A DNA stretch of 64,000 nt from a virus, in IMG/VR virus record IMGVR_UViG_3300029822_000007, positions 31-64,030 of that record; one strand, written 5' to 3'. This document shows positions 42,865 to 64,000 of the stretch, one piece after another. The notes beneath the pieces were generated by a model, which was given only the letters and a program-made list of their open reading frames with translations, ran no database searches and was not told the DNA's origin. Positions within the stretch are counted from its first letter, which is position 1, and every line of letters starts with the position of its first letter. The position numbers and the translations under genes are program-made.

Positions 42865-42879
42865 TTTTTGTCAACTCCT

Positions 42880-44857: not shown

Positions 44858-44917
44858 TTTTAAACCCCCTTAATAATAATTATTATTTGTATATTCTATT
44901 ATAATACTATATTGGTA

Positions 44918-45133
44918 TTATTTAAATAGTGCTTTCACATTTATTACTTCTACTTTTACAACGCATGGATTAACTTTCTGTTTAACTAAGTTTAAAAAGC
45001 ACTTATCACTTAAATTACTAGGTGATACCTTAGAGTAATTTTTACTCATGTTCATGTTACCTATACCATACCTGCCTTCAGAATCCCAAAAATAATAACT
45101 TACAAAATATCTGTATTTACTTAACCTTACCAT
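44918..45133 (-). CDS. Hypothetical protein
   Basis: ORF track. Confidence 0.55.
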   Translation of the reverse strand: MVRLSKYRYFVSYYFWDSEGRYGIGNMNMSKNYSKVSPSNLSDKCFLNLVKQKVNPCVVKVEVINVKALFK

Positions 45134-45134
45134 A

Positions 45135-45761: not shown

Positions 45762-45794
45762 TTTTAATTTCCCCCTCATTTATTTGTTAATATT

Positions 45795-45823
45795 ATTATA
45801 TAACATTATTATATAACATTCAA
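45795..45823 (-). promoter_or_regulatory. Early promoter E5
   Basis: TTGAAT-17-TATAAT. Confidence 0.85.
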
Positions 45824-45827
45824 GAGG

Positions 45828-46841: not shown

Positions 46842-46851
46842 TTAATCACTC

Positions 46852-46992
46852 CTAAAAAATCAATTGCAAAAATTTAATCCAACCATATGCAGATACTCCA
46901 ATACCCAACACTATAACAGATATAATAAATAATGTAACCATAATAGCTACCACTGCACCTATAAAAGTTTGTACCACATCTTTAATTTTCAT
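46852..46992 (-). CDS. Small hydrophobic membrane peptide (46 aa), not in the ORF track
   Basis: GGAGG RBS; MKIKDVVQTFIGAVVAIMVTLFIISVIVLG... Confidence 0.5.
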   Translation of the reverse strand: MKIKDVVQTFIGAVVAIMVTLFIISVIVLGIGVSAYGWIKFLQLIF

Positions 46993-47200
46993 TATTATAT
47001 CCTCCTATTTTATTATGAAATTGCTAGTGCCACATTAATACTAAACATAAAAAATTAAAAAATACCCACAATATATAAACTATACGTATTAAAAATTTAT
47101 CTCTCATTTTAATCGCACCCTTTATTTTATAGTAAATAATCCACCTATAAACATACCAATAATAAATGTTATAGCAAATAATACTATTAATATTAATACT

Positions 47201-48577
47201 TTAAAAAACTTCTGTGCCATTTTTAAATTCGTCCTCTCCTTGCTTATCTTGTATTTCCTGTTTAATATCTGTATTGTGTGGGGTGCCATTCAATGATTTA
47301 AAATCACCCTTATCAATATCCCAAAAGTACAATAAATCTTTATTATTTAAACCATACCTATTTTTCTTTACAGTCATTTTAAGCCCAGCGGCTACTTGCT
47401 TCATACTTATCACCCTACTACTATTTTGTCCAATTGCATCTGCTTCCTGTATTTCATCGGTATCTGGTGTATCTTCGTCCATTTCATCTTTCTTCTTTTT
47501 CTGCCTCCTTTTAGCTTGTGCATCTGCTAAAATAGGTTTTTTATACTTTTCACTTGTATTAAATAAATCTTCACTAATATGTGCTAGTTTAATTCGGTTT
47601 GGGTCACCTTTTTTCGCTCTATAATCTGCCATTAAACTGTACTGGTCAATACCAATAATATCAGGTTTATACTTATCTATAAGTGTATGCAGTGTAGGTA
47701 CATCTAAATGCTTATTTCCTAAATCCTTTGGGGTAACTATGATAAATGGCACATCTTGTTTAGCTAAATTTGTAAGCCAATTATTATACTCAATGCTACC
47801 ACCCTCACCTAATTTAGTATCACCAGTCATAAGCCCTAAATTACTAAAGTGCTTTGCCAGTGTATCAAACCTATATCCAATCATATTTACACCCATTTCA
47901 CCGCTATACAATAAAACACGCTTCTTCTGATTCCATGCCGCTACTAAAAAATATAATAGCAACCACGTTTTTCCTTCATTTGTTCTTCCCAGTATGGTTA
48001 TTAAATCTTCTCCATCAAGCCAGCCAAATGTTATTCGGTCTAAATCATCTAATCCACTGCTTATTCCTAGCATACCATGCTTCTCGCTTCTTGCATGGTA
48101 ATCATTCCACCTATCCAATGAGTTTTTAACTAAATCATAACCTGCATTATAGCCTTTATTCTTTAAATCATTCAATTCCTGTATTTTTGGTAGCATGTAT
48201 TCAATTGCTTTTGTACTATCAGTTGCAATTAATTCTGCCACTTTGTTTAAAACTGGTAACATACGCATATACAAATATTTTTCACTTAAAGTTTCAATTA
48301 AAAATTTATCACTTTCTGTAACATCAATATTTTCAAAATCTTCAAATGTGCTAACCATTGTTTCAATGTTCGGAACATTGCCATATTTTTGATAATGTTC
48401 TTGTATAAATGCAAATTCATCTTTATAAGTTACAAAATAATCTGCACTTATATCGTTCTGCACTAAAATATTTAAATTGCCCTGTTTAATAATTTTATTT
48501 AGTACCTGTAATTCTACCATTTCTTTCATGTGCATTAACCCTCCTGTCTTTACTGGTAAATGTAACAACCTCACCAT
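47201..48577 (-). CDS. dnaB: Replicative DnaB-family helicase
   Basis: LGRTNEGKT, IGIDQY, ADAQ, IQEADAIGQ, KNRYG. Confidence 0.9.
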   Translation of the reverse strand: MVRLLHLPVKTGGLMHMKEMVELQVLNKIIKQGNLNILVQNDISADYFVTYKDEFAFIQEHYQKYGNVPNIETMVSTFEDFENIDVTESDKFLIETLSEKYLYMRMLPVLNKVAELIATDSTKAIEYMLPKIQELNDLKNKGYNAGYDLVKNSLDRWNDYHARSEKHGMLGISSGLDDLDRITFGWLDGEDLITILGRTNEGKTWLLLYFLVAAWNQKKRVLLYSGEMGVNMIGYRFDTLAKHFSNLGLMTGDTKLGEGGSIEYNNWLTNLAKQDVPFIIVTPKDLGNKHLDVPTLHTLIDKYKPDIIGIDQYSLMADYRAKKGDPNRIKLAHISEDLFNTSEKYKKPILADAQAKRRQKKKKDEMDEDTPDTDEIQEADAIGQNSSRVISMKQVAAGLKMTVKKNRYGLNNKDLLYFWDIDKGDFKSLNGTPHNTDIKQEIQDKQGEDEFKNGTEVF

Positions 48578-49229
48578 TATTTACTCTACTATAAAGCCTA
48601 TTACCTAATACATCTAATAATTCTGTACCCATTAAATTAGTTGTATAAATACTTGCCAACCCATTGTTACAGCGTGTATTAATTATATCATAAAGTGTAG
48701 TATATTCATATTTACTTAAATCAGCTACACCCATATCATCAAAAACAACCAATGGCAAACTATACATATCGTTCATTAATTTTTCAGTGTAGCCGCTATT
48801 ATTTTGTATATTTATACGCATTTTTGTATAAACATTTGTTAAATTTACAAATCTACCTTGTGGCTCTAACTTGCAAACTGGTATTTGTTTTTCTAAAAAT
48901 TTCATAAGCAATTTTATAGCCCATGTTGTTTTACCATTACCAGTATTTTTACTTTGTATTAATAAACTGCCGCCATAGCTCACAAAATCACATATATTAC
49001 TTTTTAGCCTGTTTAATTCTAAGTAAGCCACTTTATCATCTTTTGGTACATCTACTATTAAATGCTCCGGGTACTGCATTTTCTTTGGCACATCACTGGC
49101 ATACGCTAAATAGTGCATTACCATATATCTTAAACAACCCCTGTAGCATTCCCCCGGTTTTTTAAAATCTTTACAAACGCTCTTAAACCAGCATTCATCG
49201 GCGTTAAACTCGTACTTGTACATCACCAT
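48495..49229 (-). CDS. DnaC/IstB-like helicase loader ATPase
   Basis: NTGNGKTT, VVFDDMG, IYTTN, LYSR. Confidence 0.85.
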   Translation of the reverse strand: MVMYKYEFNADECWFKSVCKDFKKPGECYRGCLRYMVMHYLAYASDVPKKMQYPEHLIVDVPKDDKVAYLELNRLKSNICDFVSYGGSLLIQSKNTGNGKTTWAIKLLMKFLEKQIPVCKLEPQGRFVNLTNVYTKMRINIQNNSGYTEKLMNDMYSLPLVVFDDMGVADLSKYEYTTLYDIINTRCNNGLASIYTTNLMGTELLDVLGNRLYSRVNNGEVVTFTSKDRRVNAHERNGRITGTK

Positions 49230-49246
49230 TAACCTCCTTGTTAACT

Positions 49247-49278
49247 ATTATATCAAACAAGTAACCAAAAATTAAAGT
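49247..49278 (-). promoter_or_regulatory. Class-2 promoter motif
   Basis: ACTTTAAT-N15-TGATATAAT. Confidence 0.75.
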
Positions 49279-49405
49279 ACAATTTATATTATTCAATAAA
49301 AATATATTTTAAGGCATTGCACCATAGTTAAAAGCACAATTACCCTAAAAATATATTTTAAAGCTTGTCAGTAGTGCATATACTAAAAATTTAGCTATTT
49401 AAACA

Positions 49406-50281
49406 CTACATCTTTTCCCCAGTTACATCATCATCGGTTGGTGCTGGCTTTGTAGCTGTATGGTAAGTAACCTCTTTGCCAAAATTATCCCATTTACTAA
49501 CTTTTTTAAATACCGGCTCGTTAACATACTTATCAAAATTACTTTCCCTAAACAATGTACTGGGTCTTAAATACTTTGCCATTTTAGGGTCATCATGCCA
49601 TTCTGCAAACTTGTTATCTATAACAAACTTAATATCGTTAACTGTGTACTTATTGGCAAACAATTTTTTAATTAGCCTGCTATTAGTTTCGCTATTTCTA
49701 AAATGGGTACCTAAAACATTATTTAAATAAATTATAATGCCGCCAACTATATCCGGTGTACTAAATAATTTATTATTATGATTTTTAGGTTTGGTCAATG
49801 ATACTGGATTATTTGTTGATTTATTAATAGATTCATTTGTTTTAGTAGAAGACTGATTGTCTATATGATTACTTGAGTAGCGTTTCGCTACGTCTGGGGA
49901 AAGGTCAGATTCTTTAGAAACGTTGATATCATCACATTTATTAGCATCTACATCAAGACATGGCGTTTCGCTATGTCTAACAATGCGATAATACATCTTA
50001 GCAGGTACCCCTAATCGCTTATAATCAACTAAGCCAATCTCCTTTAATTTTTTAAAAGCTCTAATTTGTGCGTCCCTTTTTATAGCGGTGTGTTTTTCTA
50101 TAGCTTCCCTTGTAGTATAAAAATAACCGTCAATCCTTTTTTCTGTAAATATGCTATCTAGATACAACAAATTACTGAAAAGTATAGCAGGTACTACACC
50201 TATATCTTTAGCTAACCCAATATTATAAGTTGCAGTGGTATCTTTATAATTTAGTGATGCATATTTTGTATAATTATACAT
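49406..50281 (-). CDS. Replication initiator (wHTH + conserved phage C-terminal domain); start corrected from 50296
   Basis: N-terminal HTH; IIIYLN...KYLRPSTLFRESNFDKYVN. Confidence 0.85.
   Translation of the reverse strand: MYNYTKYASLNYKDTTATYNIGLAKDIGVVPAILFSNLLYLDSIFTEKRIDGYFYTTREAIEKHTAIKRDAQIRAFKKLKEIGLVDYKRLGVPAKMYYRIVRHSETPCLDVDANKCDDINVSKESDLSPDVAKRYSSNHIDNQSSTKTNESINKSTNNPVSLTKPKNHNNKLFSTPDIVGGIIIYLNNVLGTHFRNSETNSRLIKKLFANKYTVNDIKFVIDNKFAEWHDDPKMAKYLRPSTLFRESNFDKYVNEPVFKKVSKWDNFGKEVTYHTATKPAPTDDDVTGEKM
49880..49978. repeat. Two GCGTTTCGCTA(C/T)GTCT palindromic repeats inside the initiator gene (candidate ori iterons)
   Basis: Copies at 49880-49895 and 49963-49978; partial copy near 49686. 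Confidence 0.55.
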
Positions 50282-50343
50282 AAAATAACCTCCCAATTAT
50301 TTTAAATATTTATGCAGGCTATAAAAATATAATGCCTGCATAA

Positions 50344-50375
50344 ATTATATCATATTTAGTTTAAATCATTAAAGT
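50344..50375 (-). promoter_or_regulatory. Class-2 promoter motif upstream of the initiator
   Basis: ACTTTAAT-N15-TGATATAAT. Confidence 0.7.
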
Positions 50376-50578
50376 TAAAAATTCTTTTGTATATCTTCAA
50401 TTTGTTTTTCTATTTCTTCTACAACTGTATTCCATGCCATCTCTTTAACCTTTTTACTGTTATCATTGTTTTCTAATTCCAATTCTACTGCACAGCCAAC
50501 TTTATGCCATACACCATTTGGTCCACCTGTTTGAAAGCTTGTACCATACTCGCACCTAATACTTTTTAATTTTGCCAT
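50375..50578 (-). CDS. Hypothetical protein (start corrected, MAKLKSIR)
   Basis: GGAGG RBS before ATG at 50578. Confidence 0.6.
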   Translation of the reverse strand: MAKLKSIRCEYGTSFQTGGPNGVWHKVGCAVELELENNDNSKKVKEMAWNTVVEEIEKQIEDIQKNF

Positions 50579-50591
50579 ATTAATAACCTCC

Positions 50592-50813
50592 CTAAAATTT
50601 ATAACCATTGTGCTTTTTAATAGTTTTATTAATTGCCTTTTTCTTTGTTTCAGTTGCATAATAATTTTCAGATAACCATGCACGCCTAGCAGTATTAATT
50701 TCATCTCGTTTAGCTTTTTCTGCTAAATAATCCTCACAGTCTGCATGACATAATAAATGCCTATCTTCACAATTTTGACAACATTTGTTATTCATTTTAT
50801 CACCCCCCCCCAC
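50592..50813 (-). CDS. Small Cys/His zinc-binding-like protein
   Basis: CCQNCEDRHLLCHADCEDY. Confidence 0.6.
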   Translation of the reverse strand: MGGGDKMNNKCCQNCEDRHLLCHADCEDYLAEKAKRDEINTARRAWLSENYYATETKKKAINKTIKKHNGYKF

Positions 50814-50822
50814 AACTGCACT

Positions 50823-51203
50823 TTATTTAGTGTTGGTATATTTACACCTCATAGTTACAACTTTTTTAACATCGTTGCAGTCTGACAGTTTGGCGGCGTC
50901 TATCTTGTGGGTATATATTGCATCCTCCAGTTTGGCTACATCAATAATTTCTTTAGTTGTAATACAATCAGTATAACCCAAATCTTTTAATCGTTGCAAC
51001 ATCTTATCTTCGTTTGGTGTAACTCTTTCTGTTTCACTAATAGTTACCTTAATACCATCTTTGCTTACATATTCACTTATGCCTAATTCTTTAAAGTTAG
51101 TTTTGATATTTTTATTCAATTCCTTAACTTTCTTTTGTAATTCTTTTACCTCTGTGTTATAATTATGATAATCGTTAACCAATGCTTCTAAATCTTTTTT
51201 CAT
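50823..51203 (-). CDS. Hypothetical phage protein
   Basis: ORF track, GGAGG RBS. Confidence 0.65.
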   Translation of the reverse strand: MKKDLEALVNDYHNYNTEVKELQKKVKELNKNIKTNFKELGISEYVSKDGIKVTISETERVTPNEDKMLQRLKDLGYTDCITTKEIIDVAKLEDAIYTHKIDAAKLSDCNDVKKVVTMRCKYTNTK

Positions 51204-51231
51204 GTTTTAACCTCCAATTATTTTTTATTTT

Positions 51232-51257
51232 TAAAGGTGCCAATGATGGTACCTTTA
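51232..51257 (-). terminator. Terminator hairpin
   Basis: TAAAGGTGCCA-4-TGGTACCTTTA. Confidence 0.6.
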
Positions 51258-51265
51258 TTTTTTTA

Positions 51266-51532
51266 TTATTTTTTCTTTGCCTTTAAATAATCACTCATGG
51301 TGCCATAGCTAATATATTTATTGTACCATTTTTCCAGCTGAGGTATATCACTTTCTTTAAAATATCTTGTACCCCTCTTATCAAATCTATAAATGGTAGG
51401 CAATTCACCTAATATTTCTTTGTTGCCAGTAAATTCAGCCCAGCCATACCATGATTTAATAGTTTGAGTAGTTTTATTAATCCTTTTAGCCACCTCACCT
51501 ATTCTTAAATAATTAATATTATCTTTTAACAT
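51266..51532 (-). CDS. MerR/excisionase-like winged HTH protein
   Basis: LRIGEVAKRINKTTQTIKSW...RGTRYF. Confidence 0.75.
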   Translation of the reverse strand: MLKDNINYLRIGEVAKRINKTTQTIKSWYGWAEFTGNKEILGELPTIYRFDKRGTRYFKESDIPQLEKWYNKYISYGTMSDYLKAKKK

Positions 51533-51549
51533 TTTATTTTTCCCCTTTC

Positions 51550-53262
51550 CTATTCAAGTAACCATTCTACAAGTTTATTTTTATTCATTTTATTTACTTT
51601 GCCATCGACAAGTACATCTGAGTATTGACCCTTTTGTTTTACTAACTCATGTACTTTTACATCTATAGTATTATTACATAGTAGTGTAATTATACTAACA
51701 GTACCCTTTGTTCCAATTCTATACGCCCTGTCTTCTGCTTGGTCTTTTAATGCCCTATTCCATGGCTCATCTAAAAATATTACATATGACGCCGCTGTCA
51801 GGGTTAAACCAGTACCCATGGCACCAATAGTTCCAATAATAATTTTACAGCTATCATCATTCTGAAATTTTTGTACTTCATCGTCTATATTTTTAACTTT
51901 GCCAGTTATATAGGCTGGGTTAAACCTAATTAATCTTTTCTTAACTTCCTGTGTAACCTTTTCCCAGTTACTAAATATTATGGACTTTTTTCCATTTGCA
52001 TTTATTGTATCTATTAATTCTTCTAATCTATCTAATTTTGCACTTTCTAAAACACGTTCACTTACTAATCCAGTATAATCTGTTACCTGTCTTAATCTAG
52101 TAAGCTGTGCCAATGGGTTATTCGACGTTGTTATTTTATCTAAATCATCTTTAACTGAGTTTAAAACTGAATTATATATTTTAGTTTGCTTAACTGTCAT
52201 TTCAATAAATTCATCTTGTACAACTTTTGGTGGCAAATCTAATACATCTTCTTTTAAACGCCTAAGCATAACGTTATTTAATTTATGTTTTAGCTTAGCC
52301 AAATTTTTAAATCCTAATACCTCACCTCCACCATAGCCGCCTAAAATACAGTAATATTGTTTAAACTGGTAAAAACTATGAAATTCAACATCTAACCATT
52401 TTAATAAGTTATATAAATCTAGTGGGTAATTCATTAGTGGTGTACCTGTTAATCCTATTTTGTAGTAACTTTTTAAACTGTGTATAGCCTTACCAATGCC
52501 ACCAGCCGGATTTTTACATTTGTGTATTTCATCTATAACAGTCATGCCAATAGTGCCATCTAAGGTCATTGTGCTTAACAAATCTTGTATTTTATCATAT
52601 CTTAAAGTTTCCACATTAGTAATTAAAAAGTAGCAATTTGAATATTGGCTTGTACCATTATAAATTGCTGTTAAATCTTCAAATCTTGTTTTAACACTGC
52701 CAATTTTCAATTTACCCTTTCTGTTTATACCGCTACCTAAAATATGAGCTTTTTCTTTACTGTGTTTACTAACTTCATTTATCCAATTTACCTTTACTGA
52801 GTTAACACCACATACTATTAAACAATATTTAAATTCACCTTTGTGCATACATGCAATATCTATAGCTTCTTTTGTTTTTCCTAAGCCTTGTTCATCTGCT
52901 AATAAAAATTTATTATTATTTATAGCATAATTCATTGCATCTAATTGATGTTGATAAGACTTTGTTTTTGGTTTATATTTACTATACTTACTTACATCTA
53001 CATCATTAAATGTTTTAACGTTATCCGCCTTTTTAAGCAACTTTTTATCTACACTTGCATCAATGTTAACTTCGCCATTAAATAGCCTTATAACATCTAA
53101 ATAATCCCGCTTTGGCACCTCCCATTCATGTGTCTTTGGATTGTAATACCTTGTTTTTAGTTGTTTAACCTTATCTACTAATTCTAAACTATAATCAAAA
53201 CTAATAAACAATGCTCTTTTATTTTTTACTTTAATTGCTTCCTTTTCTTTTATTGTAACCAT
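51550..53262 (-). CDS. SNF2-family (HARP-like) helicase/annealing protein
   Basis: ADEQGLGKT, IDEIH, LTGTP, GLTLTAA, QAEDRAYRIG. Confidence 0.9.
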   Translation of the reverse strand: MVTIKEKEAIKVKNKRALFISFDYSLELVDKVKQLKTRYYNPKTHEWEVPKRDYLDVIRLFNGEVNIDASVDKKLLKKADNVKTFNDVDVSKYSKYKPKTKSYQHQLDAMNYAINNNKFLLADEQGLGKTKEAIDIACMHKGEFKYCLIVCGVNSVKVNWINEVSKHSKEKAHILGSGINRKGKLKIGSVKTRFEDLTAIYNGTSQYSNCYFLITNVETLRYDKIQDLLSTMTLDGTIGMTVIDEIHKCKNPAGGIGKAIHSLKSYYKIGLTGTPLMNYPLDLYNLLKWLDVEFHSFYQFKQYYCILGGYGGGEVLGFKNLAKLKHKLNNVMLRRLKEDVLDLPPKVVQDEFIEMTVKQTKIYNSVLNSVKDDLDKITTSNNPLAQLTRLRQVTDYTGLVSERVLESAKLDRLEELIDTINANGKKSIIFSNWEKVTQEVKKRLIRFNPAYITGKVKNIDDEVQKFQNDDSCKIIIGTIGAMGTGLTLTAASYVIFLDEPWNRALKDQAEDRAYRIGTKGTVSIITLLCNNTIDVKVHELVKQKGQYSDVLVDGKVNKMNKNKLVEWLLE

Positions 53263-53294
53263 AATTATAACCCCCTTCAGTGTATGCTATAAGT

Positions 53295-53942
53295 CTAACG
53301 ACTCATAGCATAATCATAAGCTTCCATTAATATTTTTACTGCAAAACTATAATCATCTGCATTTTTTATTTTAAATATTGCATTTAATGTCCATTTGTAT
53401 TTATCATCTGCTAATTTAATTCTATCAAAATCAGCTTTTTCCAATGCCCTGCAATCAATTCTAATTACTATTGACCTTTTTTGTAATCTTATTTCTGCTA
53501 CATTTCTTTTTATTGCTCTAAGTACAGTGTTATATTTAGTGTATTTAACTTTGCAACCTTTTTGTTCAAATAACTGTACAATGTTTTTATAATAACTTGT
53601 AATTGTGTCATTAGTGGGTAATGGTTTTTTACCAATTTTCTTTGGTGCTGGCAATGCCTTTCTAAATATTTTAGCATCCATTTTACTTTTAAATTCTGCT
53701 AAGTTTAATTCATCAGCCGATGTTAATTCTGTACTTAAACCTAATTCATTAATAACTTCTTCCTTTACAGTAGTTAAATATTTCCACCATCTTTCAACTG
53801 TGCTCATGCTATAGCTTTTTTGTCTATCACCATCAAATTCAAACAAAACCCTGTTATCGTATAATTTTATTATTGTGCCAACCTCTGCACTATCTTTTTT
53901 ATTTTCAAATTTCATTCCAATTTCAAAATTTTCTTTTTTCAT
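53295..53942 (-). CDS. Early two-domain protein; C-terminus resembles DUF5655/YjbR-type domains
   Basis: KYTKYN...RNVAEIRLQKRSIVI...IKNADDY..AVKILMEAY. Confidence 0.5.
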   Translation of the reverse strand: MKKENFEIGMKFENKKDSAEVGTIIKLYDNRVLFEFDGDRQKSYSMSTVERWWKYLTTVKEEVINELGLSTELTSADELNLAEFKSKMDAKIFRKALPAPKKIGKKPLPTNDTITSYYKNIVQLFEQKGCKVKYTKYNTVLRAIKRNVAEIRLQKRSIVIRIDCRALEKADFDRIKLADDKYKWTLNAIFKIKNADDYSFAVKILMEAYDYAMSR

Positions 53943-53976
53943 TTTTTATTTCCTCCCTGCCTTACTTGTTGACATT

Positions 53977-54005
53977 ATTATATAACATTATTATATAATA
54001 TGCAA
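53977..54005 (-). promoter_or_regulatory. Early promoter E6
   Basis: TTGCAT-17-TATAAT. Confidence 0.85.
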
Positions 54006-54043
54006 GTCTTTTCATAAAAAATATTCAAAATATTTTTAAATAA

Positions 54044-54069
54044 AAAAAGCACCCCATCCCCGGGGTGTT
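54044..54069 (-). terminator. Rho-independent terminator
   Basis: CACCCC...GGGGTG followed by CTTTTTTT on the minus strand. Confidence 0.75.
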
Positions 54070-54466
54070 ATTTATTCCACTTTCCATTTTCATATTGGTA
54101 TTGGTAAGTGTTGCCGCTATCTTTAACTTTTACTTGTAATGTTATTGTCTTTACTGCATCATCATTACCATTTAAACTTTTATGCAAACTATTAACAGTT
54201 GTCTTTTTTAGTTGGTTTAATGCACCATTTGTATCCATTGCTGTGTTAAAGTTTAGTAACACATTTAAACTATCATACTTATCATCATATCGATATTGAC
54301 TTGATTCTAATTTTGCTCCTGTAAATGTTTTATTTAATGTTTGCTCATATTGAGTTACGGGTTTAGTCTGTGAAACATCAACAGTTGAGGCACAACCTGC
54401 AAAACTAAGTAAGCTTGCACTAATACAAACACATGTAATTAATTTTTTAATACTATTTCTTTTCAT
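54068..54466 (-). CDS. Lipoprotein
   Basis: Lipobox LSFAGC after a basic and hydrophobic N-terminus. Confidence 0.8.
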   Translation of the reverse strand: MKRNSIKKLITCVCISASLLSFAGCASTVDVSQTKPVTQYEQTLNKTFTGAKLESSQYRYDDKYDSLNVLLNFNTAMDTNGALNQLKKTTVNSLHKSLNGNDDAVKTITLQVKVKDSGNTYQYQYENGKWNK

Positions 54467-54509
54467 AATAAAAACCTCCGTATATTTAATATTTGTTTTA
54501 ACAGTTATT

Positions 54510-54538
54510 ATTATAAAACATTAATATATAATATGCAA
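54510..54538 (-). promoter_or_regulatory. Early promoter E7
   Basis: TTGCAT-17-TATAAT. Confidence 0.8.
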
Positions 54539-54559
54539 GAGGTTTTTTTAAATTATTTT

Positions 54560-54979
54560 TTATTTATTTGTTTTTGGTAAATCATATACAGCCGCTTGTA
54601 TATAATCATCTATAAGTTTCTTTTGATTATCAGTAGGTGTAATTTTTAATTCTGCTAATAAAGCATACACCGTACTTTGAGCTGATTTAAACTTCTCATC
54701 GTTTGTTGTTAGGCTACCAATGCCACCCAACTGCTCAGCTGTTTTAGCACCAACCAACGCACCATTTTTAATTGTTTCTATTATAGTGGCACCTTTATTA
54801 ATTGCCGGTATTTCCTTTGCTAAATCAATTAAAGGGTCGCTTGCACTTATAACAGATTCTGCTTTAGTTGCTAATTTTTCTATATCAATGTTCTTTTTCT
54901 TTAATATGGGTACTACCCATATAGATACAGCTATAACGCCTAACACTAATGCTAAAATTATCGCTAATTGTTCATTCAT
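54560..54979 (-). CDS. LL-H-type holin-like membrane protein
   Basis: Single N-terminal TM helix; TAEQ...EKF..A...IQAAV pattern. Confidence 0.6.
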   Translation of the reverse strand: MNEQLAIILALVLGVIAVSIWVVPILKKKNIDIEKLATKAESVISASDPLIDLAKEIPAINKGATIIETIKNGALVGAKTAEQLGGIGSLTTNDEKFKSAQSTVYALLAELKITPTDNQKKLIDDYIQAAVYDLPKTNK

Positions 54980-54991
54980 TTTATAATCCTC

Positions 54992-55816
54992 CTATTTTAA
55001 ATTTTTAATATAATCCAATACAGCTTGCATTGTTGCATATCTAGTTGAACCTGTTATTAAAGTTTTAAGATAAGATGTGTACTGTTCTTTGTTTCCACCA
55101 ACTGCATATACATTTTTAACATTACTATAATCAAATTTCCTAGCATTGTTAATAGTTGGACATGCCAATCTATCTGCTAAATATTCTGCCGCTCTTTGGT
55201 CTGCACCATCATTATAAACTACTAAATTTTCCACTTCATCTTCCCCCTTAATATATTTTATAAATTCATCAGTTATATAGCTAAAGTCAATATAGCCACT
55301 AATGCCACTAACTTGTCCCTTTTCCGTAAACTGCCACATTGCATATTTTGTCCAAAGTGTGAAAGCTGGTGTGGCTACACCATAATTAGCAATCCACAAT
55401 GGATAAGCACATATTTTAGAATTTAAGTGTTCTTTTATAAAACTTGGGTTACAATATACAACGCATCTAAATTTTTTAGCCACAATATTTAAAAATGCTA
55501 AACATGCCTCAGTAATATCACCGGTGCATGGCTGTTCTAAATCTAGCACTACAAAATCCGGTGTGGTGCCTGCAATACAACTTAAAAAGAAGTTTGCTTC
55601 TTGTTGTGCTTTAGCTATAGTAGTAAAGTTAGCAAAATGATATGCACCAGTTATTTTTCCTTGAGCTTTAGTATTTGTATAGTTTTGTTTATAATACTTA
55701 TCTACAAATGTGCCGCCCTCTGATGCTTTGGCAATAATGCCTATATAACCTAAATTAAATAGTAGCTTTACATCTACATTACCATTTAAATTACTTATGT
55801 CTGCTATTTTCTTCAT
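54992..55816 (-). CDS. GH25 endolysin, CTP1L-like (274 aa)
   Basis: DIS...KASEG...GAYHF...LDLE; near-identical from memory to phiCTP1 CTP1L, including V195. Confidence 0.95.
   Translation of the reverse strand: MKKIADISNLNGNVDVKLLFNLGYIGIIAKASEGGTFVDKYYKQNYTNTKAQGKITGAYHFANFTTIAKAQQEANFFLSCIAGTTPDFVVLDLEQPCTGDITEACLAFLNIVAKKFRCVVYCNPSFIKEHLNSKICAYPLWIANYGVATPAFTLWTKYAMWQFTEKGQVSGISGYIDFSYITDEFIKYIKGEDEVENLVVYNDGADQRAAEYLADRLACPTINNARKFDYSNVKNVYAVGGNKEQYTSYLKTLITGSTRYATMQAVLDYIKNLK
55234..55250 (-). promoter_or_regulatory. Internal RBS and GTG start (codon 195) for the endolysin cell-wall-binding domain
   Basis: AAGGGGG-8 nt-GTG at 55234; (55816-55234)/3+1=195. Confidence 0.85.
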
Positions 55817-56231
55817 CTTTATTCTCCTCCTTATTCTTTTTAATTCCTTGTAATTGTTCTAATGCATCTACCAGTTTTTGTGGCACTGGTAATCCACTCT
55901 TGCCACAATTTTCTATTATTGATATTCCTTCGTTTGCAATATAATAATAACACACTAGGGTTCTAAAAATCCAGTCACCACTATTTATTAATCGGTCTAA
56001 AAGTGTTGCCACTATAAGGATAATAAGGATTTCAGATTTTTTCAATAACCCTTTAAATCCCGTTTGGGAGTTTACTGTTTTTGTTGTAAATGCTTTTACC
56101 AATCCGGAAATATAATCCAGTAGTATAAATACTGCTAATATTTCTAAGCTCATGTCCCAACCCCCAAATAAAAATGTCAATAATGCACCTGTAATCCCTA
56201 CTTGTAAACAGTGTATATTTAGTTTGTCCAT
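55791..56231 (-). CDS. Holin (toxin secretion/phage lysis family)
   Basis: TM helices, LDYISG...ANEGISIIEN...GLPVP. Confidence 0.85.
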   Translation of the reverse strand: MDKLNIHCLQVGITGALLTFLFGGWDMSLEILAVFILLDYISGLVKAFTTKTVNSQTGFKGLLKKSEILIILIVATLLDRLINSGDWIFRTLVCYYYIANEGISIIENCGKSGLPVPQKLVDALEQLQGIKKNKEENKDEENSRHK

Positions 56232-56262
56232 AATATCACCACCTTCGGACTACACTAATAAA

Positions 56263-56289
56263 AATAAAGGAGGCTTGCCCTCCTTTATT
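56263..56289. terminator. Hairpin between tail gene and holin
   Basis: AATAAAGGAGG-5-CCTCCTTTATT. Confidence 0.6.
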
Positions 56290-56347
56290 CATTATAATAT
56301 ATTATGCAAAAATGATAAATCCTTAATTTATTAACTGTTTATAAAAT

Positions 56348-58834
56348 TTAATAAAAATAAGCATAACCATTAAATGTTGCTCCACCACCACTGTAACAAT
56401 AAATTCTAGTGTGGTTTACATCGGTATCTTGTGTAGTAACAATTAAGTTACCAACTGTTCCATTCAATCTAACTATTGGGTGATATCCTAAATTGTGTGC
56501 AATTGTCACTGAACTTCCTGTTGGTATACTGACAGACTGTGTGTATACTGGCGTTTTACCTAAACCAAAATATTTATCAGCTGATATTGTTCCAGCACTT
56601 CCAATACTACCTCCGCCCATCATGATGTTATTTCCATTCATCCACAGATAATCATAGAAGTCTATATAACTACTATTAACTTCAACCTTACCATTTACTA
56701 AATTAACATTACTACTAACTACTAAAGAATCTGTACTTATTGAACCACTACCACTTCCGGAGCCTCCACTACCATAAACAATTAAATTACCATTAAGCAC
56801 AATATTATCATTAAATATACTATTTCCCCAAACAGTAAAATTACTACCTAATATTTGTGCCTTATATATATCAACATGTCCATTCAAAGTATCAGAGGGT
56901 TGTATAGCACCTATCGTTATAGTACCATCATCATCTGTATCTGTCCTAGATATTAAATGCTTACCAAACATTTGTATCAGTGGTAATGTATTTGCACCAT
57001 ATACCATATATCCTAAACTAATCATTTCACTTGAATTTTGGTATATGGATATTTGCTGGTCATGCAATGTTAAATAGTTTGTAGTATTATTAGTTTTTAA
57101 TGTAGTACCAATAATATCTACACCAGTAATTGTGCCACCACTTATTCTATCACCGCTTAATTCGCCAGTAGTAATTGAACTAGCATCTAAATTAACAACG
57201 CTTATCTGTGCCGCATCTAATGTTCCTGTAGTAATCTTACTAGCATCTATAGAAGCAATGATGCCGGAGTTTGCAGTAATAGTATTAGTAGCTATTTCAT
57301 TTGCAGTAATAGCATTGGCTACAACTTTATCGGCAGTAATAGTTCTATCCGTTAATGCCTCACCATTAATAGTTGTTTGACTTAGTGTCTGTGTAGCCCC
57401 GGGCAAATTATTTATTTCATAAACAATACTTTCATCGCTACCTCTAATAATTAATCTATCTACAGATAATGTTCCTGCTGTAATACTATTAGCACTTAAA
57501 TCAACAACCTTTGCATCTGTAATACTACTATCTGCTATTTGTGCAGTACCTATGGCAGAAGTAGCTATGATGCCACTATCAGCTGTAATTGTGCCAGCAA
57601 CCAATTGGTCTGCTACAATTGTATGGGCTTTTATAAGTGTACCATCTAATTCGCCTGTGGTTATATTAGTCGCATTTAGTTTAATTACATCAATTAAACT
57701 TGCATCAATTGTGCCACCGCTTATCCTATCAGCACTAAATGTCCCAGTAGTTATAGCACTTGCATCTAAATTAATTACTGCTATCTGTCCTGCATCAATA
57801 GTTCCACCTGAAATTCTATCAGCACTAAAAGTTCCTGTGGTAATACTACCTGCATCCAAATTAACCACAGAGACTTGTGAAGCATCAATAGTTCCTGTTG
57901 TTATATTACCTGCATCTAAGTTAGTTACATCAATCACACTAGCATCTATAGCTCCAGAAGTGATATTACTAGCATTAAGATTGGTAACACCAATAACATG
58001 TGCATCTATTGTACCGCCGCTAATATTACTGGCATTCAAATTAGTTACTGTAATAACCCCAGCGTCTATGGTACCAGCGGTTAATTTATCTGCACTTAAT
58101 GAATTAACCTTTTCATTAGTAACCTGCAAATCACCGATTTTGGCTGTAGTTATTGTACTATCTGCTACCTTTTCAGTAGTTACAGCTAAATCAGATATTT
58201 GTGCAGTTTGTACTTGCACATTTTTAACTTTAGTCCAATCAATACTATCAACTGCATCACCGCTAACACTACCACCATCAGTTGTTGTAATTGAATCTAC
58301 AGTTTCAGTTGTGTGTAATGATTTTTCAAATAAATCTTCCATTAATTGATACATACTATCAAACTGCACAGTATTTTGCTCCGGTTTATCCATATATTCT
58401 ACTGTTTGTATTATACGCACAGTTTGTCCAATTTCTTTCTTTGAATCCATTATAGTTACTGTATCACCAATATTGTAGCTTAATTCTGAAAAATCTTCAA
58501 AGTCTGGATTAAGTTCAGATATTCTAGCTAAATCTAAAACAGTTGCATCGAACGTGACCTGTGGCTGTGATAATATTGCTAATTTAGCTACCGCATCTTC
58601 TTTAAGTGCATTTGCATCAGTATATTGACCAGCCGACCAGTATGCTGTTATAATTTGGTCAGTGTACTGGTGGTTTTCAACATATGGCAACCCGCCATTT
58701 ACATCATTAATATACATATCATTTTGTCCTACTGGTATTAAGCCCTCTTTAGGTATCGGCATCAGACGTACTTTATTACCTTCTGGTGTTATGATTAACT
58801 GACCACTTTCTGCTATTTCTCTTAATTTTGACAT
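56348..58834 (-). CDS. Tail protein 1 C-terminal 797 aa (10-aa beta-helix-like repeats + tip domain) fused to 31 unrelated residues
   Basis: From LIPVGQ onward it continues the frame of 1..702; repeats (L/I)xAxxIxxGT; HNLGYHPIV tip. Confidence 0.85.
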   Translation of the reverse strand: MSKLREIAESGQLIITPEGNKVRLMPIPKEGLIPVGQNDMYINDVNGGLPYVENHQYTDQIITAYWSAGQYTDANALKEDAVAKLAILSQPQVTFDATVLDLARISELNPDFEDFSELSYNIGDTVTIMDSKKEIGQTVRIIQTVEYMDKPEQNTVQFDSMYQLMEDLFEKSLHTTETVDSITTTDGGSVSGDAVDSIDWTKVKNVQVQTAQISDLAVTTEKVADSTITTAKIGDLQVTNEKVNSLSADKLTAGTIDAGVITVTNLNASNISGGTIDAHVIGVTNLNASNITSGAIDASVIDVTNLDAGNITTGTIDASQVSVVNLDAGSITTGTFSADRISGGTIDAGQIAVINLDASAITTGTFSADRISGGTIDASLIDVIKLNATNITTGELDGTLIKAHTIVADQLVAGTITADSGIIATSAIGTAQIADSSITDAKVVDLSANSITAGTLSVDRLIIRGSDESIVYEINNLPGATQTLSQTTINGEALTDRTITADKVVANAITANEIATNTITANSGIIASIDASKITTGTLDAAQISVVNLDASSITTGELSGDRISGGTITGVDIIGTTLKTNNTTNYLTLHDQQISIYQNSSEMISLGYMVYGANTLPLIQMFGKHLISRTDTDDDGTITIGAIQPSDTLNGHVDIYKAQILGSNFTVWGNSIFNDNIVLNGNLIVYGSGGSGSGSGSISTDSLVVSSNVNLVNGKVEVNSSYIDFYDYLWMNGNNIMMGGGSIGSAGTISADKYFGLGKTPVYTQSVSIPTGSSVTIAHNLGYHPIVRLNGTVGNLIVTTQDTDVNHTRIYCYSGGGATFNGYAYFY
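58637..58741. repeat. 105-bp exact direct repeat, copy 2
   Basis: Identical to 1-105. Confidence 0.95.
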
Positions 58835-58862
58835 TAAACCATTTCCAATTATATTTATCTGA

Positions 58863-58894
58863 ACTGTTAGTTTATACTAATATAAACTAACAGT
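58863..58894. repeat. Perfect 14-bp inverted repeat with 4-nt loop containing the stop codon of tail protein 2
   Basis: ACTGTTAGTTTATA-ctaa-TATAAACTAACAGT. Confidence 0.9.
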
Positions 58895-61800
58895 ACCAGT
58901 CCAAAGATTACCTCCATTATTGTAATTTTTTACAGTAGTTTGATTAGTATTATTATGATATACAGTTAATATTATATTACCCGTAGACCCCGTAAATTGC
59001 ACTATAGGCATATAACCTAAATTATGCACTATAGTATGCGTATCACCATTATTTAAAGTACCTGACCATGTAGCTACAGGATATCTACCTAAACCTTGAT
59101 AATGTGCATTAGTTATAATTCCATTTTGTGCATTTAATGTTCCGCCATTCATATTTATATCATAACCATTCATAAAAAGGTTTCTATAAATATCAATATA
59201 CGAATTAGTTATTATATATGCTCCGTCGTAAATATTAATATCATTTTTAAATTGTACTGGGGATATAAAAGTAACATAACCACTACCAAACGCTGAAGCC
59301 TTAATAAGATCCAATTGTGCTACAATACCATTAGCAGAACTTAAAATTAAAACATCAGCATACAGTTCGGCTTCATTATACATCATACGTATAGTAGGTG
59401 GAGGTGTTGCAGCACTAGATTCAGTTCCACCACCGAATATAGAAATAGCCGGTAAGCCACGAAAAGCATTGTAGGCATAAAAATTATTACCAAAAAGAGT
59501 AACTCCACCTGCACCTACACCCGTATAAACCCTCCCCGCATTTATTACCGGTGCAAATATATAACCCGTATTCAAATTAATAGTTCCCTGAGCACCATTA
59601 CCAGCATCATAGTAACCTAACTTCATGACTTGTGTTGCATCCTGAAATATCTCCAAATATTGTTCATGAATCATTATATAATTATTTGTATTAGATGTTT
59701 TTAACAATGCCCCCGTAATTGTACCGCCAGAAATTATATCACCACTAATAGTACCACTCGTAATATTATTTGCATGTAAATTAATAACATCCACCACATC
59801 AGCGTCTATAGTACCTGTAGTTATTTTATTAGCATCTATAGAAGCAATAATACCATTAGAAGCCGTTATAGTGTTTGCTGCAATTTCATTTGCTGTAATA
59901 GTTTTAGCAAATATTTCATTAGCAGTTATAGTATGTGCTACAACTTTATCAGCTGTTACTGTTCTATCAGTTAAAGTTTCGCCATTAATAGTAGTATAAC
60001 CTACTACCTGTGTAGCTCCAGGTATATTATTTAATTCATAAACAATACTTTCATCGCTACCCCGAATAATCAATCTATCCACGCTTAATGTACCCGCAGT
60101 AATACTATTAGCACTTAAATCTACAACTTTAGCATCAGTGATACTACCATCAGCTATTTGTGCCGAACCTATGGCGGAATTCGCAATGATACCACTTTCT
60201 GCCGTAATAGTTCCACTAACCAACTGGTTCGCTACAATGGAATGTGCCTTTATATAGGTACCATCTAACTCACCTGCGGTGATGTTACCTGCATTCAGAT
60301 GGATAACATCAATCGTTGATGCATCAATTGTACCACCGCTTATACGGTCAGCACTAAACGTACCAGTGGTTATAGCGGATGCATCCAGTTTTACGACCGT
60401 TATTTTGGAAGCATCTAACGTTCCGCCAAATATTCTATCCGCAGTGAAAGTACCGGTAGATATCGATGAAGCATCTAAATTAATAACATCGATATATTGT
60501 GCGTCTAGTGTCCCCCCAGAAATTCTATTTGCAGATAAACTACCTGCAGTAATATTGCCTGCATTTAAATTAATAACACTAATAATGTTAGCATCTATAG
60601 TACCACCAGAAATGTTATCAGCATTAAGATTGAATACATGGATTATATCTGCATCAATAGAACCTGTAATAAGATTACTTGCATTTAGATTGATGACATT
60701 AATTATATTGGCATTGATGGTGCCCGCAGTTAGTTTATCGGCGCCTAATGAATCAACTTTTTCATTAGTAACTTGCAAATCGCCTATCTTTGCCGTGGTT
60801 ATTGTACTATCTGCTACTTTCTCAGTGGTAACTTGTAAATCACCTATTTGAGCAGTTTGTATTTGTACATTTTTTACTTTAGTCCAATCAATACTATCAA
60901 CTGAATCACCACTTACGTCACCGGTAGCTGTAGTTATATTTTGTAATTCTTGGTCTACTGCGGTGATAAGTTCAAAGTAATCTTCCATTAAATCATATTG
61001 GGATTCTAATTGAACTGTATTTTTATCTGGTTCATCCGGATACGAAACTGTTTGAACTATCCTAACTTGTCGTAATGTTTTTGATTGTCTATCACGTATA
61101 GTTATGGTATCCCCTAAATTATAAACATATTCACTATAATCAATATTATTAGTTAAACCTAATTCACTAAGTCTTGCTAAATCTAATACTGTACAATCGA
61201 TAGAAATTTTAGGTTGAGATAATATTGCTAACTTCTTAATAGCATCTTCTTTAAGGGCATTAGCATCTGTATATTGATTAGCTGACCAAAACTGTGTTAT
61301 ATTTTGATTTGTATATTGGTGGTTTTCTACATAATTTATACCGTTATTTATATCTGTAATATAAAGATTATTCGCCCCTACTGGAATTAAACGTGTCACT
61401 AAATCGTTAGTATCATATTTAACTTGAATATTTAATAAGTTAAATTTATCATCAAAGATAACACCAGCAAAATGGGGATTAAGCACCTCATTAAGATATA
61501 TAATTTTATTTTTAGCGTCAAAACGTAATTCAGTCATAAAGATTTCTGCAATTTTTTTAATTATATCTAGCGCAGTAGACTGATTCATAGCTAGACTTCT
61601 AAGTTTAACAGTACTAACATTGGTTTGAAATGTCCAACCCGTGCCAGTAAGTGCATTAGTTGCTAAAGTATTTAGTTGTGCGTTAGGTCTTGAAAAGGAT
61701 AAATTAATAGCATTAGTAAGTTCATCTAAATATACTACAGCTTTTACAGATAATATACCATCAGCCGGTGTAACTTCTTTAATAACATATAGTTGCGTAT

Positions 61801-61996
61801 CAGTTTCAATAAAATATTGGGGCTTAATTTGCGGCCCCATAACTGTTTCTACTTCTTCCCCACTAGCATCTACAACATAGTAGGGATAATTAAATTCAAG
61901 AGTGTCATTACCTTTAGTATCTTCAGTTATATGAATATCTGAAGAATATGGTAATACACCTAAGGGAGCTCTACTATCACTGCTTAAAGCTAACAT
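58877..61996 (-). CDS. Tail protein 2 (complete Tal-type endopeptidase domain + repeats + tip)
   Basis: 1039 aa, colinear paralog of reconstituted tail protein 1; TRLIPVG, HNLGYMPIV. Confidence 0.9.
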   Translation of the reverse strand: MLALSSDSRAPLGVLPYSSDIHITEDTKGNDTLEFNYPYYVVDASGEEVETVMGPQIKPQYFIETDTQLYVIKEVTPADGILSVKAVVYLDELTNAINLSFSRPNAQLNTLATNALTGTGWTFQTNVSTVKLRSLAMNQSTALDIIKKIAEIFMTELRFDAKNKIIYLNEVLNPHFAGVIFDDKFNLLNIQVKYDTNDLVTRLIPVGANNLYITDINNGINYVENHQYTNQNITQFWSANQYTDANALKEDAIKKLAILSQPKISIDCTVLDLARLSELGLTNNIDYSEYVYNLGDTITIRDRQSKTLRQVRIVQTVSYPDEPDKNTVQLESQYDLMEDYFELITAVDQELQNITTATGDVSGDSVDSIDWTKVKNVQIQTAQIGDLQVTTEKVADSTITTAKIGDLQVTNEKVDSLGADKLTAGTINANIINVINLNASNLITGSIDADIIHVFNLNADNISGGTIDANIISVINLNAGNITAGSLSANRISGGTLDAQYIDVINLDASSISTGTFTADRIFGGTLDASKITVVKLDASAITTGTFSADRISGGTIDASTIDVIHLNAGNITAGELDGTYIKAHSIVANQLVSGTITAESGIIANSAIGSAQIADGSITDAKVVDLSANSITAGTLSVDRLIIRGSDESIVYELNNIPGATQVVGYTTINGETLTDRTVTADKVVAHTITANEIFAKTITANEIAANTITASNGIIASIDANKITTGTIDADVVDVINLHANNITSGTISGDIISGGTITGALLKTSNTNNYIMIHEQYLEIFQDATQVMKLGYYDAGNGAQGTINLNTGYIFAPVINAGRVYTGVGAGGVTLFGNNFYAYNAFRGLPAISIFGGGTESSAATPPPTIRMMYNEAELYADVLILSSANGIVAQLDLIKASAFGSGYVTFISPVQFKNDINIYDGAYIITNSYIDIYRNLFMNGYDINMNGGTLNAQNGIITNAHYQGLGRYPVATWSGTLNNGDTHTIVHNLGYMPIVQFTGSTGNIILTVYHNNTNQTTVKNYNNGGNLWTGTVSLY

Positions 61997-62031
61997 TATT
62001 TAATCCCCTCCCACAGGATGATAAACTATGA

Positions 62032-62436
62032 TTAAAAATCAGTTATCATAAATTTTAGCGACATTAGTTCTTGTGGTGTAAAGTCTGTTTGACCTAAATC
62101 ATCAAAGTTGATAACATAGACCTCAAGTGTATTTTCAATATCTAACAATTCATTAAGGTCTTTTGTGAATGATTCAGGTTCAGCAATAATTACACCACCT
62201 TTTTTATCTTTTACTATTACATTGTCATCATCACGTTTACCATATTTGTCAATTAATTTATTTCTTTCCTTATCAAATGCCTTTAATTCTTTATTAAGAA
62301 TATCAATATTTTTAGTTAAGGTATAACTAGTAATAATAGGTAATGATTTAGTAAGGACCGATTTTAAACTAGTCCCAATAGTCACCATTTCTCTATTAGC
62401 TAATGTCTTTTGTAATTTTTTTAATTTAGCTCCCAT
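62032..62436 (-). CDS. Hypothetical tail-module protein, paralog of 732..1121
   Basis: Shared motifs and position. Confidence 0.7.
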   Translation of the reverse strand: MGAKLKKLQKTLANREMVTIGTSLKSVLTKSLPIITSYTLTKNIDILNKELKAFDKERNKLIDKYGKRDDDNVIVKDKKGGVIIAEPESFTKDLNELLDIENTLEVYVINFDDLGQTDFTPQELMSLKFMITDF

Positions 62437-62438
62437 GA

Positions 62439-62693
62439 TTAAGCCTCCTTATTAAATACTGGATAAACAGCATTTACTTTAGTTTGTACAGCACTATAAA
62501 ATTCTTGGAATTGCGCTTTCACTGCATCAATATTTTGAAGGGCGGTATCTTTGTCCTCAAAATATACATTGATATCGAAATTATTATCAGACAAGGTAAA
62601 TCTCATATTACCTATATTTTTCTGTACAATTTTATCATCTACTGTTTGATTTATAATAATCGCACCTGTTATATTTGTTGATTCTTTTAACAT
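62439..62693 (-). CDS. Hypothetical tail-module protein, paralog of 1142..1396
   Basis: 84 aa, NNFDI motif. Confidence 0.7.
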   Translation of the reverse strand: MLKESTNITGAIIINQTVDDKIVQKNIGNMRFTLSDNNFDINVYFEDKDTALQNIDAVKAQFQEFYSAVQTKVNAVYPVFNKEA

Positions 62694-62714
62694 TTTATAT
62701 CCTCCTTTAAAACA

Positions 62715-63527
62715 TTAAAACCACCTAGGTTTATATAATATATCTACATGCGTGTTAATTGCTACTTCATCTGCAAAGATAGCTGAAAACTTAATATTTA
62801 ATTGCATAACTTTCGGGGCAGCTATAATAGGAAAATCGCCCCTAAATCTTGATAAATCAGGAACTGTATTTGCAAGTATTTTATAAGTTTCCGCATTGAC
62901 TTCAATAAGATCACCATTACCGACATCCATTAATGCAAATTGGTCTGTAACATAGTCATTTAATATTTCAAATACTGGGTCTTTATTAAAAGCTAAATAT
63001 ATTAAATGGTCAGTAGTTGCACCATTTAATATTTTAAATCTTACAATTAAAGGCGTAAATTCATTACCTATTGTAGTAAAATTAATTGTAGCTGCTTGTG
63101 ACGTATCTGTAAATGTAATATCTTGACCTATAGTAATAACACTTCCATAACCTCGCCCAGCCGTTAACGTAGCTTCTATAATATATCTACAGGTATCATA
63201 ACCTGTATCAGTATCACCATACCAAGTTATTGTAGGTTCATTAGTCATATATACATTAAATGATTGTCCTATATCTGTAAAACCTAAGCTACAGTTTACA
63301 AAATTCTTTAATAGATTACTAACTTTTTGTAATGTTAAATCTTTAGTAGTATCTTCTACTAAACACGTAACTTTAATTTCTTTTTCTTGTGCTTGTTGTT
63401 GTGCTATCAAAGGGTTAGCAGCTTTCTTATACCATTGTATTGCGTAATTAACCTTAGAAGGTCCAACAGAATAATCTACTAAGGTAATATCTGTTCTTGC
63501 AACCCCATTTATAATTAAATCAGCCAT
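62715..63527 (-). CDS. Distal tail protein (Dit) 2
   Basis: Paralog of 1415..2251 (TWYGD, GDFP, YKPRWF). Confidence 0.75.
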   Translation of the reverse strand: MADLIINGVARTDITLVDYSVGPSKVNYAIQWYKKAANPLIAQQQAQEKEIKVTCLVEDTTKDLTLQKVSNLLKNFVNCSLGFTDIGQSFNVYMTNEPTITWYGDTDTGYDTCRYIIEATLTAGRGYGSVITIGQDITFTDTSQAATINFTTIGNEFTPLIVRFKILNGATTDHLIYLAFNKDPVFEILNDYVTDQFALMDVGNGDLIEVNAETYKILANTVPDLSRFRGDFPIIAAPKVMQLNIKFSAIFADEVAINTHVDILYKPRWF

Positions 63528-64000
63528 TAGACCCTCCCCTTTGTTCTTCCTGCAATTGTTCTACTAATTCTTGTCGATAAATAATCAATAGCTTCCTTAT
63601 TAGTAAATGCATAATTGCCATTCAAATTAATATTTACCGGCATTGCAGCATTATTAGTTGATGCCATTTGAGTTTGAGTAGCTACATCCAAACCTTTAGC
63701 ATTTTGCATCACATTTTGTAAATTAGCAATAGTAGAAAGTAAATTTAAACTATCTTTGTTATTTAATACTGTTTCGCCGCCCTGAAATAATTTTAAAGCT
63801 TTGCCACCAACAATTTCAAGACCCTTCTCTGCAACAGCATGCATACCGCTCATAGCACTTTTAACACCATTAGCATAACCAACGTAATTACCCCCAAATA
63901 AATTAGGGATATTATATGGTGAACCGTAACGTGCTTTTATATAATTAATAGAAGACATTAAATTATCAATAGGATTAGTAATATTACCATGACCCCTAGC
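63527..64000 (-). CDS. Tape measure protein 2, C-terminal part (frame open to the window edge)
   Basis: [32 protein letters not shown]... aligns with the end of TMP 2251..5340. Confidence 0.85.

Follow-up and report, generated by a model that had tools for sequence, protein, structure and literature searches.

Gene content of the window

The window analyzed here is a stretch of 64,000 nucleotides, bases 31-64030 of the 64,070-bp IMG/VR virus record IMGVR_UViG_3300029822_000007. Its last 5.3 kb hold a block of tail-tip genes that had originally been predicted to be a second tail module with a restriction-site signature unlike that of the rest of the genome. The record is classed as linear and is rated 100% complete by CheckV, and every gene of the window lies on the minus strand. 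We refer to positions 1-58741 as part A and to positions 58742-64000 as part B; positions follow window numbering unless marked as contig positions.

Part A is colinear over its whole length with the Clostridium phage phiCTP1 (59,199 bp), with full synteny and a nucleotide identity that reaches 92% in the tail genes and 96% around the lysis genes, and drops to 80% in gp26. It is therefore a member of the phiCTP1-like group. Its own tail-tip genes lie at the start of the window, where the gp26A (Tal) gene runs off the end and resumes at position 58636 in the circle described below. Part B, read on the minus strand, carries the end of a tape measure gene (TMP'), gp23', gp24', gp25', gp26' (Tal') and the start of a next gene (ATG at 58834), which is the gp22-gp26 order of phiCTP1, itself a phage with one tail-tip set. 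This order is also that of A, with only 34-62% amino acid identity between the two, and on this comparison block B is a distant relative of the phiCTP1 type. The features that bear on the analysis are as follows.

1..58741, minus: genome A, one complete phiCTP1-like Clostridium siphophage unit, assigned by synteny and 80-96% nucleotide identity to phiCTP1
1..702, minus: gp26A (Tal), N-terminal 234 codons, 92% amino acid identity to phiCTP1 gp26 residues 1-244
1..105, strand not applicable: repeat copy 1, inside the gp26A N-terminal part (codons ~200-234), exactly identical to 58637-58741
732-1121, minus: gp25A, one of A's own tail-tip genes
1142-1396, minus: gp24A, likewise
1415-2251, minus: gp23A, likewise
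2251-5340, minus: A tape measure, likewise
58637..58741, strand not applicable: repeat copy 2, closing point of the genome A circle, exactly identical to 1-105
56348..58834, minus: open reading frame ORF828, 31 foreign codons in frame with gp26A residues 200-996, found on this contig only
58742..58759, minus: junction filler of 18 nt, codons 26-31 (PIPKEG), matching neither A nor the ENA copy of B
58760..58834, minus: first 25 codons of the gene after Tal' in B-type phages, identical to P0127 (31 amino acids)
58877..61996, minus: gp26' (Tal'), 1039 amino acids, PF06605 with E=2e-36
62032..62436, minus: gp25', 134 amino acids, 35% amino acid identity to gp25A, phrog_1401
62439..62693, minus: gp24', 84 amino acids (the same length as phiCTP1 gp24), identical protein on 7 contigs
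62715..63527, minus: gp23', 270 amino acids, in the Dit position, 34% amino acid identity to gp23A
63527..64000, minus: TMP', C-terminal 157 codons of a tape measure, cut by the contig end, 49% amino acid identity to A's, phrog_167

The Tal' product spans positions 27-244 of the 250-position Prophage_tail profile and so has a complete N-terminal domain. Its amino acid identity with gp26A is 62% in residues 1-795 and falls to 39% in the final 122. Given this difference in the C-terminal part, the different host range that had been proposed for B is plausible.

Restriction sites on the two sides of the junction

Exact counts bore out all of the previously listed site positions and added one that had been overlooked (GCGC at 61570). 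GCWGC is absent from A and occurs six times in B, at 59409 and 59877 in Tal', at 62818, 63091 and 63418 in gp23', and at 63645 in TMP'. GCGC is likewise absent from A and occurs three times in B (60741 and 61570 in Tal', 62513 in gp24'), GGCC is found 0 times and once (61833, in Tal'), and GATC once in A, at 18570, and twice in B (59308 in Tal', 62909 in gp23'). Thus, the claim that A holds no GCWGC, GCGC or GGCC and a single GATC is exact, and the per-kilobase counts differ sharply, with 1 site in 58,741 bp of A versus 12 in 5259 bp of B. The lone GATC of A is found where genes are sparse, between the small-terminase region and the early genes. Part A is also free of CGCG and CTGCAG, and holds four copies of CCWGG.

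Two null models were used, a maximal-order Markov model and a set of 200 synonymous-codon shuffles that preserve the proteins and the codon usage. For part A the Markov model, whose use had been suggested with the original prediction, calls for 58 GCWGC, 56 GATC, 28 GCGC and 64 GGCC, and the shuffles for 54 GCWGC (range 44-65), 87 GATC, 38 GCGC and 32 GGCC, together with 12 CGCG, 21 CCWGG and 11 CTGCAG. Counts in A are therefore far below the codon-preserving null for every one of these words, and CCWGG is also avoided, although only in part. Part B conforms to its shuffle expectation for GCWGC (6 observed, 5.4 expected), GCGC (3 and 3.7) and GGCC (1 and 2.5), and is depleted in GATC only (2 observed, 10.3 expected; two or fewer in 0 of 200 shuffles). 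No alternative avoidance set was found in B beyond GATC, with 5.3 kb giving little power for longer words.

The difference between the two parts is significant by a conditional binomial test for GCWGC (P=3e-7) and for GCGC (P=5.5e-4), and for the four words pooled (P=1.1e-12). Windows of 5259 bp inside A contain at most 1 site each. A's own homologous tail-tip genes (gp26A, gp25A, gp24A, gp23A and the tape measure; 5234 bp) provide a matched control, and they carry none of the four words, compared with the 12 sites in B. An unbiased scan of all 5-mers likewise returned GCAGC/GCTGC as the top B-enriched word.

The loss in A proceeds by synonymous recoding. GCA or GCT make up 84% of its alanine codons, such that 46 of its 55 Ala-Ala pairs would be expected from codon usage to begin with one of them; none does, and A writes Ala-Ala solely as GCG/GCC-GCN. 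A remark in the original prediction on how the two tail proteins encode Ala-Ala thus holds genome-wide in A. Conversely, all six GCWGC sites of B are in-frame GCW-GCN Ala-Ala pairs. Because GCWGC and CCWGG have been recoded, the sister words GCSGC (84 versus 23 expected) and CCSGG (37 versus 11 expected) are over-represented in A. This compensating excess is not seen in B, which has no CCSGG, versus 9 in A's tail-tip genes.

The observed/expected ratio of CpG is 0.76 in B versus 0.42-0.49, and the codons CGT, ACG and TCG are commoner in B. We considered whether B is compositionally alien overall and rejected the idea, as its tetranucleotide distance from A (0.2067) equals that of A's own tail module (0.2066). 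GC content and tetranucleotide distance both failed to separate B from A's tail genes, which shows that site density can be the sharper marker of a seam between sequences of different origin.

The depletion of these words is shared by cultured relatives. Counts for GCWGC/GATC/GCGC/GGCC are 0/2/0/0 in phiCTP1 (GATC at 40277 and 41112) and 2/1/0/0 in vB_CtyS-FA88 (OR113388; hereafter FA88). The purge is common to A and these two C. tyrobutyricum phages, so relatives on the same host avoid the same words. Prophage loci from C. luticellarii, C. akagii and other Firmicutes behave differently: GCWGC exceeds a simple expectation, GGCC is at ~0.4-1.5x and GCGC at ~0.5-0.8x, and GATC is 2- to 5-fold low (~3- to 4-fold in the two Clostridium loci). 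The pattern of B is broadly that of the Clostridia prophage loci. The phiCTP1 and FA88 counts thus make the purge of A a trait of its lineage, linked to the C. tyrobutyricum host group, and by the prophage-locus pattern B resembles Clostridia phage DNA that has not been selected.

Restriction enzymes would be the presumed cause of the purge, and the list of purged words then predicts the restriction specificities of the hosts. For C. tyrobutyricum, one paper mentions strain-specific restriction-modification genes and no more (PMC3744679), and our literature search turned up neither a study of site avoidance in phiCTP1-type phages nor one of the restriction specificities of C. tyrobutyricum. 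Separately, the unrelated C. tyrobutyricum phage FA67 (OR113389.1) has 0 GATC, 0 GCGC and 0 GGCC, yet 19 GCWGC. Its pentamers are opposite to those of A (19 GCWGC and 0 GCSGC, with 2 CCGG and 0 CCNGG), which hints that FA67 and the phiCTP1 group were exposed to different strain-specific enzymes.

Circle closure and the junction with block B

The exact 105-nt match between the two ends of part A belongs to a longer repeat in the full contig, where bases 1-135 recur at contig positions 58637-58771 with two adjacent mismatches. Joining the contig at this repeat yields a circle of 58,636 bp, counted with the 30 contig bases that precede the window and without block B. In the joined form, Tal is a single 996-amino-acid reading frame that runs from 702 down to 1 and then from 58636 down to 56348. 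It is colinear with phiCTP1 gp26 (86% amino acid identity) and is 100% identical over all 996 residues to P0003, an intact Tal from independent ENA contigs that covers positions 21-245 of the Prophage_tail (PF06605) profile plus the D1 domain. A scan of IMG/VR with P0003 returned phiCTP1 itself only.

The mismatch in the repeat consists of TT at contig bases 8-9 versus GC at window positions 58614-58615, and it changes residue 243 of Tal. The contig start and P0003 encode Lys243, and the internal copy, which is part of the B-side fusion, encodes Ala243, as do phiCTP1-type relatives. Two haplotypes therefore carry the common gp26A segment.

In other assemblies, a recombinase identical to that at window positions 23756-24940 (M for L at the start) is carried by a contig no longer than 36,165 bp, and a 461-amino-acid terminase in the 90% cluster of window positions 16034-17452 (called as 472 amino acids here) by one no longer than 22,253 bp. 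Added together, the two lengths give 58,418 bp, nearly that of the 58,636-bp circle, and this circumstantial evidence suggests that the genome in question might be broken at about the same position in Tal.

On the B side, the junction falls within ORF828. This frame enters the Prophage_tail profile at position 115 of 250, in the middle of the domain, and thus lacks the complete domain that Tal' and P0003 possess. The first 25 residues are those of P0127, a 31-amino-acid product on a 49,346-bp ENA contig, which then continues with LYVQLE where ORF828 has PIPKEG. LYVQLE is not present in any of the six frames of the window, phiCTP1, FA88 or FA67, and the 18-nt filler occurs once in the window. 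With the first 40 residues of ORF828 as query, no match was found among proteins of 455-1449 amino acids, and among shorter ones only P0127 was returned. ORF828 is missing from every other assembly that holds identical A or B proteins.

A strong hairpin is centred on the Tal' stop codon (58860-58899, minus strand), with 18 bp in total (a 14-bp stem and 4 outer pairs), a predicted energy of -19.4 kcal/mol and z=-5.5. The structure lies just ahead of the junction and could act as a terminator or be prone to recombination.

Origin of the seam

Genes of the B type occur elsewhere on contigs that lack A-type backbone proteins. Tal' shares 99% identity with P0001 on the 49,346-bp ENA contig, and P0122, encoded by a 9,779-bp contig, is one amino acid away from Tal'. 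The 49,346-bp contig also carries a cluster mate of gp23', and the linkage of B-type genes on it is deduced from cluster tables. Of the eighteen A proteins checked, not one has a 90%-identity cluster in which this contig appears; they include tape measure, capsid, portal, terminase, recombinase, polymerase, helicase, endolysin, holin, tube, chaperone, NrdD and primase. Most of these clusters contain phiCTP1 and/or FA88. Since none of these 90% clusters is shared, the native carrier of B is farther from A than phiCTP1 is. An NCBI record is among the sources for most of the exact A proteins checked, and never for the exact B proteins.

The proposed search of the module against Clostridium phages and prophages was run with Tal', and it produced relatives of both kinds but no close one. 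The nearest in the phage collection are phiCTP1 and FA88 (52% amino acid identity). The top hit among GTDB genomes, a C. luticellarii prophage, is 50% identical and so points to no donor or host. A scan of IMG/VR found no relative of Tal', and one of JGI metagenomes found only a 2-kb fragment at 56% identity.

From these results we lean, with some reserve, towards the view that the window joins two related Clostridium siphophage lineages that co-occurred in one sample. In lineage A, synonymous recoding has removed nearly all copies of GCWGC, GATC, GCGC, GGCC, CGCG and CTGCAG, and part of the CCWGG. Block B would be the counterpart tail-tip block of a second phiCTP1-related lineage that was selected against GATC only, and it is most likely an alternative to A's tail-tip block and not a second one. 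The step in site density would then mark the place where two different histories of restriction pressure meet, probably those of different host strains or species, and A and B would reside on separate molecules. The contig would pass from A into B by way of a segment of the B carrier that is nearly identical to gp26A from codon 200 onward.

Several points weigh against this view. The fusion in ORF828 is in frame, and because the 18-nt filler exists in neither parent, it must derive from real reads and hence from a real molecule in which B is linked to a gp26A-like segment. A recombinant with an A backbone could be that molecule. In addition, that the 49-kb contig is missing from the 90% clusters is evidence of an indirect kind.

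A recent recombinant of this kind is accordingly the alternative that we take most seriously, although we regard it as unlikely. B would have replaced the tail-tip block of a purged A backbone to form a genome of ~61.2 kb in which ORF828 is the scar, composed of 31 codons of the donor's next gene (a fibre N-terminus) and Tal residues 200-996, and in which the 12 sites have not yet been lost. This possibility, doubtful as it is, corrects the original idea by invoking replacement instead of a second module. It would account for the k-mers that must exist in the reads across the filler, for the common segment in Ala243 and Lys243 haplotypes, for a contig that runs unbroken from B into the holin and the backbone, and for a remnant gene of the sort expected from a fresh illegitimate crossover. 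However, the upstream end of B never reverts to A-like sequence (the final 72 contig bases are only ~70% identical to A, and TMP' only 49% in amino acids), and the 49-kb contig has no protein in the 90% clusters of A's tape measure, capsid, portal or terminase. The lack of ORF828 in all other assemblies with identical A or B proteins also speaks against such a recombinant, as does the heavy cost that 12 unprotected sites would impose in a host that drove A to zero.

It is improbable that the join at 58741/58742 is purely an artefact of chimeric reads or assembler error between phages with no biological link. The join does split the Prophage_tail domain midway, ORF828 is unique to this assembly, and the ENA copy of B departs after codon 25. 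Nonetheless, a graph assembler does not make up 18 new bases, the fusion is in frame, and the contigs of other assemblies hint, circumstantially, at a break near the same place. Least probable of all, and very much so, is a single genome of at least 64 kb with two tail-tip modules, the second newly acquired. Both blocks do lie on one contig in the same orientation, and the CheckV rating is that of a complete genome. Yet both ends of the contig fall inside genes and share no overlap, relatives measure 55.6-60.0 kb and those of this type carry one set, and a genome of more than 66 kb would be required to hold a complete TMP' and ORF828 as well as an intact gp26A. Because A closes, and its Tal is whole, only when B is skipped, the two-module claim should be dropped.

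The preferred picture of two co-occurring lineages thus keeps part of the original prediction. That B has a different origin stands, given its 34-62% identity to A's tail-tip proteins, its CpG ratio and its unpurged GCWGC, GCGC and GGCC. That it is a module of the same genome awaiting purge does not, since A closes without it and an intact Tal exists independently in P0003. Nor is a specific alternative set of avoided sites seen, because B is depleted in GATC only, a feature shared with A and with ordinary Clostridia prophage DNA. The signature of B is therefore explained as readily by weaker or absent restriction pressure as by different restriction systems.

Restriction-site avoidance was reportedly the subject of older work by Sharp in 1986 and Rocha in 2001. 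The avoidance of short palindromes by recoding has long been known in virulent double-stranded DNA phages (Rusinov et al. 2018, PMC6286503). Part A resembles such cases in the near-total loss of several 4-6 bp palindromes, by synonymous recoding and in common with same-host relatives, and differs in that the purge ends abruptly at a seam beyond which the adjoining B keeps its sites. With five palindromes at zero in 58.7 kb, it offers a very clear example of the avoidance of several sites at once among the cheese-spoilage Clostridium phages of the phiCTP1 group. What is new is that the boundary between purged and unpurged DNA is sharp and falls at the probable junction of two phage lineages.

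Tail-tip or host-range cassettes (Dit-Tal-RBP) are exchanged among Firmicutes siphophages, and the stretch from the tape measure end to Tal is the usual mosaic unit. Block B is a syntenic, divergent allele of this unit, but a single junction is seen for it, and this junction splits a domain. Circular or circularly permuted phage genomes in mixed populations are also known to give over-run assemblies. Here, the contig passes its own start through the 135-nt overlap and then tracks another variant, as in such assemblies; unlike in a simple over-run, the continuation is not merely colinear, since it adds 2.5 kb (the remaining Tal', the intergenic hairpin and the 31 codons).

The contig should accordingly not be taken for the genome of a single 64-kb phage that has two tail modules. 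Should a recombinant be real after all, which we consider unlikely, a fully purged virulent Clostridium phage would have been caught just after swapping its tail-tip cassette for one from an unpurged lineage. The seam would then be a dated import of a host-range cassette, and its 12 fresh sites a natural starting point for measuring the rate of site loss after module import.

A resembles phiCTP1 (NC_014457) and FA88 in gene order, nucleotide identity and purged words. Block B, conversely, has no close counterpart in phiCTP1 or FA88 (Tal', 52% amino acid identity). Genome A also differs from phiCTP1 in lacking gp27, a 665-amino-acid 'phage protein' encoded by ~2 kb between Tal and the holin, so that in A the holin comes right after Tal (compare window 56232-56347 with phiCTP1 20166-22330). 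In B, the first 25-31 codons after Tal' are loosely like the gp27 N-terminus, as judged by eye and without an alignment statistic.

The A backbone encodes two N6_N4 DNA methyltransferases (PF01555) on the minus strand, at 30789-31562 and 37794-38693 (E=5e-31 and 2e-13, respectively). The first, of 257 amino acids, matches FA88 ORF63 in length and position, and phiCTP1 has no annotated counterpart. The two enzymes may shield words that have not been purged, such as CCGG.

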